In this document: piece by piece, positions 15,001 to 18,000 of the stretch | How the letters are laid out: every line of letters begins with the position of its first letter | How positions within the stretch are numbered: position 1 is the first letter of the stretch | From: a virus | Lineage: Duplodnaviria; Heunggongvirae; Uroviricota; Caudoviricetes | IMG/VR virus record: IMGVR_UViG_2909282993_000001 | Coordinates: 1 to 56,388 of that record | DNA: 56,388 nucleotides | Reading direction: 5' to 3' (one strand) | Program-made: the position numbers

Positions 15001-18000
15001 GGTTAGCTGGTGGAGCCCTAACGGGCGCTAGTATTTATGGACTGCTGACCGGAACTGATTACGGCGTTGTATTTGGCGCATTTGCAGGGGCTGTATTCTA
15101 TATAGCAACAGCAGCAGATCTGAGTGCATCGCGTCGACTGGCATATTTTATCGTGTCATATATTGCTGGGATCCTTTGCTCTGGGTTGGTTGGCTCCAAG
15201 CTGGCAAACTTGACCGGATACAGTGATAAACCTCTGGATGCTATTGGTGCCGTAATCGTCTCTGCTTTAGCCGTTAAAATCCTGACGTTCCTGAATAATC
15301 AGGATATCGGCTCGCTGGTGGCGCTCATAACGCGCCGGGGAGGTTCAGGTGGAGCTAAATGACCCGACAGCAACTATTAATGCGCTGTTATGTGCTTGTG
15401 TTGTTATTACTCTGATGTTTTATCGTCGTGGTGATTCGCGGCATCGTCCTTGGGTTTCACGTTTAGCCTGGCTGATTACTGTTACATACAGTGCTGTTCC
15501 GTTGGCCTATCTCTGTGGGATTTATCCCCATTCCTCATGGCCCATTATCGTGGCGAACACTATTTTTCTTTCCGTGCTGGTGGCCGTCAGAGGCAACGTT
15601 GCACGTCTGGTTGATCATCTGAGGCACTAATGAACCAACAATTATTTCAAAAGGCGGCTGGTATTAGCGCCGGGCTGGCTGCGCGCTGGTTTCCGCACAT
15701 TGATGCTGCAATGAAAGAGTTTGGAATCACAGCAGTTAACGATCAGGCCATGTTCATTGCACAAGTTGGGCATGAATCTGCTGGTTTTACCTCGCTGGTA
15801 GAGAATTTTAACTACTCGGTTGAAGGGCTGAAGAAAACCTTTGGTAAGCGCCTGACGCCGTATCAGTGCGAAATGCTGGGGCGTGTCGATGGTAAACAGG
15901 TCGCTCACCAGCCACAAATAGCCAATCTGGTTTATGGTGACCGCATGGGGAATAACAGTCAGGGTGATGGCTGGAAATATCGCGGTCGTGGCCTGCTGCA
16001 AATCACTGGTCGTGAGAACTACACCAAATGCGGTACAGCGCTGAACCTTGATCTGATCAGTACGCCAGAACTTTTGACGCAAGAGCGACATGCGGCCCGT
16101 TCGGCGGCATGGTACTTCACGTTACGTGGTTGCCTTCTATATTCGGGGGATGTTGAGCGCGTCACGCAGATTATTAACGGCGGGCAGAACGGCATTAAAG
16201 ACCGCCGTGAACGTTACGCCAAAGCAAAAACCGCACTGGTATGAGGTCGCAATGGGACTTGAAATGATTATCGGCCTGGCTGTTGCTGTGCTGGCTGCAA
16301 TTGCAGGTGCTTTTGGTCTGGGTAAATCACGCGGTACAAGCATCGCAGAAACACAAGCGAACCAGCAACGCACTGAAGAACGCGCAGCAGCTACTGAAGC
16401 CGTTGCAGAACGCCGGGTAGAAACAACAAAAGGAGCCAGGGATGTACAGCAGACTGTTAACCATCTTCCTGATGACGATGTTGACCGTGAGTTGCGCGAA
16501 AAATTTACCCGCAAAACCTGAAGTAACGGACACGGCCTGTGACTGGGTAAGCATCATCTACCTTACTGAGCACGATATTGCCGTGCTGGATAAACAGACG
16601 AAGCGGGACATATTGGCGCACAACAAATCAGTGCAGGCTAACTGCATGAAGGATCCAGGTCGTGAACGTAGAGAACCTAAGTAACGCGCATTACATCTAT
16701 AACGAGATGAAAGAGCTACAGCGACAGAAAACCATACTGGAAAGTGGTGCTGGGCTTGGTGTGACAATCCAGTCTACCTATCAAGACGATGCCTTTCTTG
16801 AGGCCATACGCCCGCATGCTGTTGCTGAGCTTGATCACCGCATAGAGAAAAAGAAAGCTGTGCTGGTTGATTTGGGTATCTCCTTCTCCTAATGAATTAG
16901 GAGCTACAGCAGGTTTTAATTATGTGCTTATGATATTCTTCCCTAGTTAATTAACTGGGGGAGTAAATGCAAATGCTTGAATTTGTTGAGTCAGTAAGAA
17001 AATCTTTATTAGATGAAAATTATGAGGCTGCATTGTTTATTGCCTTATCTCTTCCTGATATATGTGGGAAACTTGAAACTCCTGAAGAGCGGAACGGGCC
17101 AAGAGCAAAAAGATGGTTTAAGGATAACCTTAAGGATAAATATTTTGCAGATAATCTTTATGAGACGTTTTTGGCTAACTTTCCCGAGCAATTAGATAAA
17201 ATGCCTCAATACTTAATCGATGATTTAAAAACAAAAAAACCATTGGTAAGCTTTGACCATGAAAGCTACTGGGCTTTAAGAAATGCATTTTTGCATGAGG
17301 CATCTGATAGTACTAAGTTACAAAAAATTCAACTTACGCACTCTTCTGCGCACATGAATATGTTTAACGGTGTGCTTCAGTTAAGTGTTATTAATTTATC
17401 TAATGATATCTGCGATGCGGTAGTTAAGTGGGTTGAGCGGATGAAGGATAATAATGATGTATGCCAGAGGATAAATTCGAGGGCAAAAATCAAAAATGAA
17501 ATGTTGGGTGGCGCTATTCGATTTGGGTAGTCTTACAAATTATCAAATCATTCCTACATGTTATCTCTAAATTTTAGAGTTACATAAGAATAAAAAAACA
17601 CCAGCTTTGGCTGGTGTTTTTGCGGAGCATGTATGCCAACTTTAATACCCCGCGCATGTCGCAAACGTGGTTGTCCTGGCACGACTACGGACCGTTCAGG
17701 CTACTGTGAGCAGCATCGCAATGAGGGCTGGCAGCAGCATCAGCAGGGTAAGAGTCGCCATGAGCGTGGCTACGGCAGCAAGTGGGATATCAAACGCGCC
17801 CGCATCCTGAAGCGTGATAATCATCTGTGTCAGAACTGCCTGCGTACTGGACGTGCTGTCGCAGCCACAACCGTTGACCACATCAAGGCGAAGGCCCACG
17901 GCGGTACTGATGAAGACAGCAACCTTGAGAGCCTGTGCTGGTCGTGTCACGCAGCGAAGACCGCGCGCGAGCGGCTCAAGTGAGAATTAATGTCATCATC

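Follow-up and report, generated by a model that had tools for sequence, protein, structure and literature searches.

The window analysed here comprises positions 1 to 56,388 of virus record IMGVR_UViG_2909282993_000001 (IMG/VR; Caudoviricetes), an Escherichia coli prophage of the lambdoid/HK97 type. At the junction of its lysis and packaging modules it carries a single AT-rich gene that is almost certainly true prophage cargo, i.e., a moron. The product belongs to a sizeable, entirely unannotated protein family whose only invariant residues are an arginine and a histidine spaced as in HEPN ribonucleases (RNases). By analogy with characterised prophage defences, we tentatively read the gene as encoding a stand-alone HEPN RNase that would act as an abortive-infection effector. 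The gene and the two motifs on which this reading draws are located as follows:

16967-17530, + strand: cargo gene, an open reading frame (ORF) of 187 amino acids; predicted stand-alone HEPN-fold ribonuclease of the unannotated family phrog_18591
17045-17071, + strand: codons of the second conserved motif, L27-S-L-P-D31-I-C-G-K35, with the candidate helix-2 acidic residue (D31-x3-K35)
17279-17296, + strand: codons of the predicted catalytic site, R105-N-A-F-L-H110 (R-x4-H), with R105 and H110 present in 288 of 288 homologues

Among 5,426 complete E. coli genomes, exactly 9 carry the cargo gene, each at an identity of at least 99.8%. Prophages with homologous lysis genes, homologous HNH/terminase genes or both are far commoner among E. 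coli genomes than the gene itself; many of these flank matches span one flank only, and they were thus not used as an exact denominator. In prophages that align on both flanks, the slot holds a DUF6173 gene, a YfbU-family gene or an unrelated 133-amino-acid ORF, all on the - strand, or nothing at all. In the multiple alignment, homology stops right after the upstream ORF and resumes at the HNH start codon. The alternative occupants were located in other E. coli prophages:

L002 2603-2992, - strand: gene for a DUF6173 protein
L003 3751-4290, - strand: gene for a YfbU-domain protein
L005 2632-3033, - strand: 133-amino-acid ORF

In addition, the GC content of the gene is 35.6% (33% at third codon positions), compared with 48.9% for the window and 50-60% for the flanking genes, which ranks it among the lowest 6% of windows of 564 bp (z = -1.9). 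Its rarity, the alternative or empty slot in relatives and its foreign base composition together leave very little doubt that the gene is cargo. The sequence-only reading of this DNA had proposed as much, naming a 187-amino-acid ORF of distinct base composition at a module boundary, with the lysis cassette on one side and the HNH/terminase genes on the other. All of these points hold; the ORF lies on the + strand. It had also suggested a comparison of presence and absence across homologous prophages, in which retention by every related phage, as a lysis or packaging component, would speak against cargo; the gene is not conserved in all of them. The base composition differs clearly from that of the neighbours, yet is not unique in the window, where other AT-rich islands (GC below 0.40) were observed at 5837-6574, 29919-30681, 38335-40678, 42247-42730, 48557-52032 and 53080-55583; these may represent additional cargo or the prophage edge.

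Two of the properties expected of a moron, patchy presence at a module junction and foreign base composition, are thus displayed by the gene, while of the promoter and terminator of its own that a moron should carry, a terminator-type hairpin was seen and no sigma-70 consensus promoter. Classical lambdoid morons, e.g., bor and lom of lambda, are likewise single genes of foreign composition between late-region modules, patchy among relatives and followed by a terminator. The present gene differs from these in that it has no identifiable promoter of its own and in that its product is a predicted nuclease and not an outer-membrane protein. The moron concept is reportedly due to Hendrix and colleagues. 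Eight E. coli genomes have the gene at 100% identity, and in five of those the surrounding 3.1 kb are only 98.8-99.3% identical. An even spread of the flank differences would give approximately 6-7 changes in the 564 bp of the gene. An identical gene amid diverged flanks hints at either recent spread of the cassette or strong constraint.

In RefSeq the ORF corresponds to the hypothetical protein WP_050437385 (E. coli O169:H41 strain F6326-C1, identical to the window at 100%). Comparison with the copy of a Citrobacter prophage gave a ratio of nonsynonymous to synonymous substitution rates (dN/dS) of 0.15 at dS = 0.42, and the ORF is therefore a real gene under purifying selection. Translation probably begins at the second ATG (16973), giving a protein of 185 amino acids, since all homologues begin there and the Shine-Dalgarno sequence GGGGAG is better spaced for that codon. 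This sequence lies in the following segment:

16893-16966, + strand: intergenic leader with the GGGGAG Shine-Dalgarno sequence, conserved with the Citrobacter copy

The only family match of the protein is phrog_18591, for which no function is annotated. Scans of Pfam, NCBIfam and PADLOC with the protein, 19 close relatives and 127 diverse relatives returned no meaningful match, and the weak matches to KKLCAg1 and HinfI were rejected as noise. A word-indexed search retrieved 22 relatives, none of them named. When 1.84 billion cluster representatives were searched exhaustively with a profile, 2,698 clusters were retrieved at E<=1e-3, with 1,508 of these at E<=1e-10. A second, annotated search with the 127-sequence profile returned 749 proteins, and among those listed, 0 of 120 had a name or a precomputed Pfam domain. 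The family is therefore large and wholly lacking in annotation. Mean column identity among the 127 diverse members is 22%, and no column other than R105 and H110 is invariant. In the cargo protein the motif reads L-R-N-A-F-L-H-E, i.e., R-N-x3-H. In the second motif, 287 of 288 homologues retain P30, all 288 have D or E at position 31, 277 have C33 and 171 have K or R at position 35. Other conserved residues are W50 (281/288), H129 (276/288) and W155 (285/288).

The residue after the predicted catalytic Arg, at position 106 (window 17282-17284), is Cys in 261 of the 288 homologues and Asn in 27. The Asn106 group takes in every member of the enterobacterial phage clade that was retrieved, and its insert between helices 2 and 3 has a median length of 39 residues, compared with 16 in the rest. 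Distant members have approximately 173 amino acids and Cys106, and come from Nitrospira, Methylomonas, Planctomycetota, Acidobacteriota, cyanobacteria, Clostridiales, Enterococcus and further taxa; a UvrD-helicase neighbour was seen in one distant member only. Such a scattered distribution, broad yet rare, is in keeping with a mobile accessory gene and is not by itself a sign of defence. An obligate four-ligand Cys2His2 metal site (C33/C106/H110/H129) was also considered and judged unlikely, as its ligands are lost independently.

The AlphaFold2 model built on the family alignment, a single domain with a predicted local distance difference test score (pLDDT) of 88 and a predicted template modelling score (pTM) of 0.84, has a HEPN-like fold. 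Its helices span 2-15, 19-37, 45-59, 98-111, 141-159 and 163-170, with short helices within 64-87 and a beta-meander at 120-140. HEPN domains are defined by an R-x4-6-H motif that closes helix-3 and runs into the loop before helix-4, mostly with a polar N, D or H after the Arg, and HEPN families have as a second conserved position an acidic residue in helix-2, typically as E-x3-[KR] (PMC3710099). Metal-independent RNA cleavage that leaves 2',3'-cyclic phosphate, and a dimer that brings two motifs together, are further HEPN characteristics (PMC3710099). The cargo protein shows R105-x4-H110, with N106 after the Arg in the protein and its clade; the helix 98-111 of the model ends one residue past H110, and D31-x3-K35 falls in model helix 19-37. 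In the model, moreover, a variable insert separates helix 2 from helix 3, and the motif is followed immediately by a beta-hairpin, as has been described for Csx1 (PMC3710099). On the strength of the invariant residues, the model and the best full-length Foldseek matches (AbiV and archaeal HEPNs), we consider a HEPN fold likely; it is not rated as certain because the absolute scores are modest. That the protein is an active RNase is also probable, with somewhat more reserve. A PD-(D/E)xK nuclease reading of the 'PD...K' string was rejected, as the motif lies within a confidently predicted alpha-helix.

The functionally closest known proteins are HepS, Tha and AbiV, while the closest in structure are the Csx1-type and HepT-type HEPN domains. 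Judged by sequence, the cargo protein does not appear to be a member of the HepS, Tha, AbiV, HepT or Csx1 families. HepS, the 'HEPN Solo' defence protein of Salmonella prophage Gifsy-1 (PDB 9OIJ/9OIK), is an anticodon nuclease activated by the siphovirus J tail-tip protein (PMC13043305). Both HepS and the cargo protein are stand-alone, below 250 amino acids and consist of little more than one HEPN domain, predicted in the case of the cargo protein, with a canonical R-x4-H motif (HepS R100-H105, cargo protein R105-H110), and both are encoded by prophage accessory genes of Enterobacteriaceae that have no conserved partner gene. The cargo protein, at 185-187 amino acids, is thus of the HepS type as a prophage-borne, partnerless, predicted HEPN protein. 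HepS contacts its trigger through a beta-sheet, and in the cargo protein a conserved beta element follows directly on the motif. Unlike these architectural features, sequence provides no link to HepS: none was found with family profiles A1 and A3 against PDB at E<=10, assuming that 9OIJ is in the 2026 copy. The LT2 Gifsy-1 record contained no ORF with R100/H105.

Tha-1 and Tha-2 of Staphylococcus aureus prophages are tail-activated HEPN abortive-infection defences that act by RNA cleavage (PMC11087260). They are, like the predicted cargo product, prophage HEPN effectors with RN-x3-H (RNSIMH in Tha-1, RNAFLH in the cargo protein); however, Tha has 301 amino acids and an extra N-terminal region, adjoins int/xis and has a dedicated inhibitor, Ith, and hhalign of the family profile with the single Tha-1 sequence gave no alignment (probability 0.6%). 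The lactococcal HEPN protein AbiV (PDB 9BJ5/9BJ7) differs in that its Foldseek E value is not significant and in that the cargo protein has no match to Pfam HEPN_AbiV. Furthermore, in AbiV-type HEPNs the motif His is typically missing and another His is used instead (PMC3710099), while the motif His is invariant in the cargo family. HepT toxins of HEPN-MNT systems (PDB 7AE2, 8XDJ, 5YEP) differ in that the cargo gene has no adjoining MNT gene or other conserved neighbour (16 loci), and in that members of the cargo family contain an additional beta element and more residues between helices 2 and 3, with no sequence-profile match. In contrast to Csx1/Csm6 of type III CRISPR-Cas, the cargo protein stands alone, without a CARF sensor domain or a CRISPR context. 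The cargo family would in practice be a new family of prophage-borne stand-alone HEPN effectors, a conclusion that is plausible rather than surprising.

The immediate surroundings of the gene bear on its possible expression and partners. On its 5' side lie a Q-type antiterminator, two holins, a GH19 endolysin, spanins of the Rz/Rz1 type and a 76-amino-acid ORF; on its 3' side lie an HNH endonuclease (17633-17983), a P27-family small terminase, the large terminase, the portal, an HK97-type protease and a capsid gene. The 76-amino-acid ORF separates the spanins from the cargo gene, a correction to the sequence-only reading. The two flanking features are:

16662-16892, + strand: 76-amino-acid ORF, phrog_5415, function unannotated
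17594-17621, no strand assigned: hairpin, a perfect 12-bp inverted repeat (17594-17605/17610-17621) that ends 12 nucleotides before the HNH start codon

The hairpin has a folding energy of -17.9 kcal/mol (z = -4.1), a stability reached by 0 of 200 shuffles. It is preceded by an A-run and followed by a T-run, and is thus symmetric and of the bidirectional intrinsic-terminator type. The sequence-only reading had described a strong terminator with its hairpin at 17598..17622. The hairpin is there, at the corrected coordinates, while the strength on the + strand was not borne out by the consensus terminator scan, which calls the - strand only. The + strand was missed because its tail has just 5 T, and it is plausible that the hairpin acts as a strong + strand terminator. 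In the multiple alignment the hairpin is not present in related prophages with an empty slot or other cargo. The Citrobacter copy has a different, non-homologous hairpin with a T-run approximately 60 nucleotides past its stop codon, and a terminator-type structure after the cargo gene is therefore a recurring feature. In the Citrobacter prophage (L006 6559-6760), this hairpin and T-run are followed by an apparent degraded HNH 5' end, judged by eye; this prophage packages with Nu1/GpA. Given the apparent HNH remnant after the terminator-like hairpin, the cassette was probably imported from an HNH-type phage context. An Rfam scan of the cassette detected no RNA family. An imperfect 17-nucleotide direct repeat, with 10 exact bases (GATTTGGGTA), was noticed at the 3' ends of the 76-amino-acid ORF and the cargo gene (16862-16878/17513-17529); as approximately one such match is expected in 1.3 kb, it was dismissed as being at chance level.

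The 76-amino-acid ORF and the cargo gene form one DNA block, 16663-17532, that is common to Citrobacter prophages L006 and L008 at 87% identity. The ORF occurs without the cargo gene in L004, where the slot is empty, and in L003, and the cargo gene occurs without the ORF in L009-L011 and L017 (Enterobacter, Pantoea) and in all distant taxa, so that the ORF is not an obligate partner. Among 16 distant loci, within 3.5 kb, the family is the only protein common to the loci, apart from one integrase pair. The cargo gene works solo, and the claim of a single-gene cargo holds to the extent that the family has no conserved neighbour. The placement after the lysis genes holds with a GH19, GH108 or lysozyme endolysin and with P27-TerS plus HNH, Nu1/GpA or Terminase_2 packaging; it was seen in Citrobacter, Enterobacter and Pantoea prophages and in phage ECP1, with three unrelated terminase types. 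In Acinetobacter phages the gene adjoins an integrase or follows umuDC-like cargo.

In the reading that we favour, the HEPN protein would be held latent in the lysogen, likely as an auto-inhibited oligomer as in HepS, until a cue from an infecting phage switches it on. R105, H110 and D31 would then cut RNA (tRNA or mRNA) in a metal-independent manner, translation would stop and the infection would be aborted, to the benefit of the lysogen population and the resident prophage. The hairpin would stop transcripts that lack Q antiterminator modification before the HNH/terminase genes, while Q-modified late transcription would read through it. In lambdoid phages, Q-modified late transcription passes terminators. 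The suggestion of an abortive-infection or anti-defence gene in the sequence-only reading is accordingly retained in its first part, as abortive infection is consistent with a stand-alone HEPN-type RNase of the AbiV, Tha and HepS effector type; nothing points to anti-defence. As precedents for the favoured reading we take HepS and Tha and, through the YfbU-family gene that occupies the slot in a related prophage, Kamadhenu (see below).

A number of observations weigh against this reading. Some of them concern the assignment of the protein. Foldseek against PDB returned AbiV as the best full-length match (E = 0.38), followed by archaeal HEPNs, none of them significant; against viral models it returned two uncharacterised phage homologues only. 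The structure-based homology search that had been proposed thus yielded HEPN proteins as its best full-length PDB matches, at scores short of significance. Curated Pfam and NCBIfam HEPN models gave 0 matches to the 127 members at E<=1, and PDB sequences gave none to profiles A1 and A3 at E<=10 except for a spurious LysR (E = 0.59). HEPN families are mutually very divergent, and the missing profile link therefore weakens HEPN membership and does not exclude it. Moreover, 261 of the 288 members have Cys in place of the usual N, D or H after the Arg. Other observations concern the role. The PADLOC-DB v2.0.0 models did not match the cargo protein at E<=1, and most distant members lie between housekeeping genes (cysNC, RNR, ilvD, fakA, clpPX), not in defence islands. 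A consensus scan detected no sigma-70 promoter upstream of the gene. At every enterobacterial-clade locus examined, the gene stands directly after the lysis cassette on the late-operon strand, and with this strict co-orientation it may be expressed during late lytic growth instead of in the lysogen. Finally, PADLOC did not match the slot-mates or the genes adjoining homologues, which weighs against the slot being a 'defence hotspot'. The sole support for that idea is that Kamadhenu, a validated lactococcal single-gene abortive-infection protein, belongs to the YfbU family (PMC11381338); the Pfam YfbU match of the slot-mate was confirmed, and the domain is thus common to both. Taken with these points, a defence role is possible, and we hold it as a tentative proposal.

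The chief alternative is that the HEPN RNase serves the phage's own lytic cycle, being made with the Q-dependent late operon and cutting host or competitor RNA late, be it for host shut-off, nucleotide recycling, exclusion of co-infecting phages or destruction of the RNA parts of host defences. The Q antiterminator lies upstream, there is no + strand terminator-like site between the lysis genes and the cargo gene, no promoter of its own was found, and the gene keeps its position and strand throughout the enterobacterial clade whatever the endolysin or terminase, while the other occupants of the E. coli slot are on the opposite strand. However, the gene is dispensable and rare among close prophages, unlike a lytic-cycle function, its AT-rich composition and own terminator are typical of morons, and the characterised solo HEPN proteins of prophages are lysogen-expressed defences. 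The co-orientation is also compatible with a weak or unconventional promoter, and we consider the lytic-cycle role unlikely. A more specific form, in which a new HEPN RNase family in the late operon would serve for offence or competition, aimed for instance at co-infecting phages, at RNA-based defences of the host or at its translation, would explain the constant co-directional place right after the lysis genes across unrelated phage backbones, and appears to us less probable again. It is similarly doubtful that the protein is no RNase at all, with a fold that is only generically HEPN-like and with D31, C33, R105, C/N106, H110 and H129 forming a metal- or ligand-binding pocket; the function would then perhaps be cellular, given the housekeeping neighbourhoods of distant members.

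Two further explanations assign the gene to its neighbours. Many HEPN toxins have adjoining antitoxins (HEPN-MNT systems), and the 87%-identical two-ORF block in E. coli and Citrobacter prophages with different lysis and packaging modules could be taken as a toxin-antitoxin pair, with the 76-amino-acid ORF (16662-16892) as antitoxin. However, this ORF is found alone in L004 and L003, is missing from the Enterobacter, Pantoea and all distant homologue loci, and carries no MNT or other antitoxin signature; as the two genes are not co-conserved, it was rejected as an antitoxin and the pair is very improbable. An accessory role in lysis or in HNH/terminase-dependent packaging could be suggested by the fact that the gene adjoins both modules, but hardly any of the prophages that have homologous lysis and HNH/terminase genes carry it, and it lies elsewhere beside unrelated terminase systems without HNH and has a foreign base composition. 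The presence/absence data largely refute this explanation, to which we give next to no weight.

Cargo in the post-lysis region is not restricted to single genes. In Escherichia phage ECP1 (KY979108 8611-9039; L014 5001-5429), a homologue with 32% identity was located after the lysis cassette, in a stretch without an annotated feature. In ECP1 (L014 5672-7692) and in two further loci (L009 6953-8422 and L017 6711-8168), the homologue is followed by a protein of approximately 485 amino acids with a weak glycosyltransferase family 2 match and by unannotated ORFs. The post-lysis region of several Enterobacter and Pantoea prophages and of ECP1 thus holds multi-gene cargo.

Within the window itself, a second AT-rich cassette (13594-14867, + strand, GC approximately 34-38%) was observed between the Q antiterminator, with a terminator-like hairpin downstream of it, and the holins. 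It is bracketed by:

13486-13505: terminator-like hairpin
14901-14918: terminator-like hairpin

The cassette encodes an 89-amino-acid winged-helix-like protein (weak DUF2513 match, phrog_32916) and a 268-amino-acid membrane protein (phrog_30208), and PADLOC matched neither of the two. In related prophages this position holds a 'membrane domain protein', a DUF5677 protein or an 85-amino-acid ORF. It is also where the Shiga-toxin genes lie in Stx phages.

If the favoured reading is correct, the junction between the lysis and HNH/terminase genes of E. coli HK97-type prophages would be a cargo hotspot, whose DUF6173, YfbU-like and 133-amino-acid ORF occupants are equally uncharacterised. The late-operon placement raises the question of how the nuclease would spare its own phage on induction. 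The approximately 2,700 clusters at 50% identity would add a new branch to the HEPN RNase superfamily, so far without a database name or a Pfam, NCBIfam or PADLOC model, and would provide a new model for defence-finding tools. The gene itself would then be another prophage single-protein RNase immunity gene, after AbiV, Tha and HepS.

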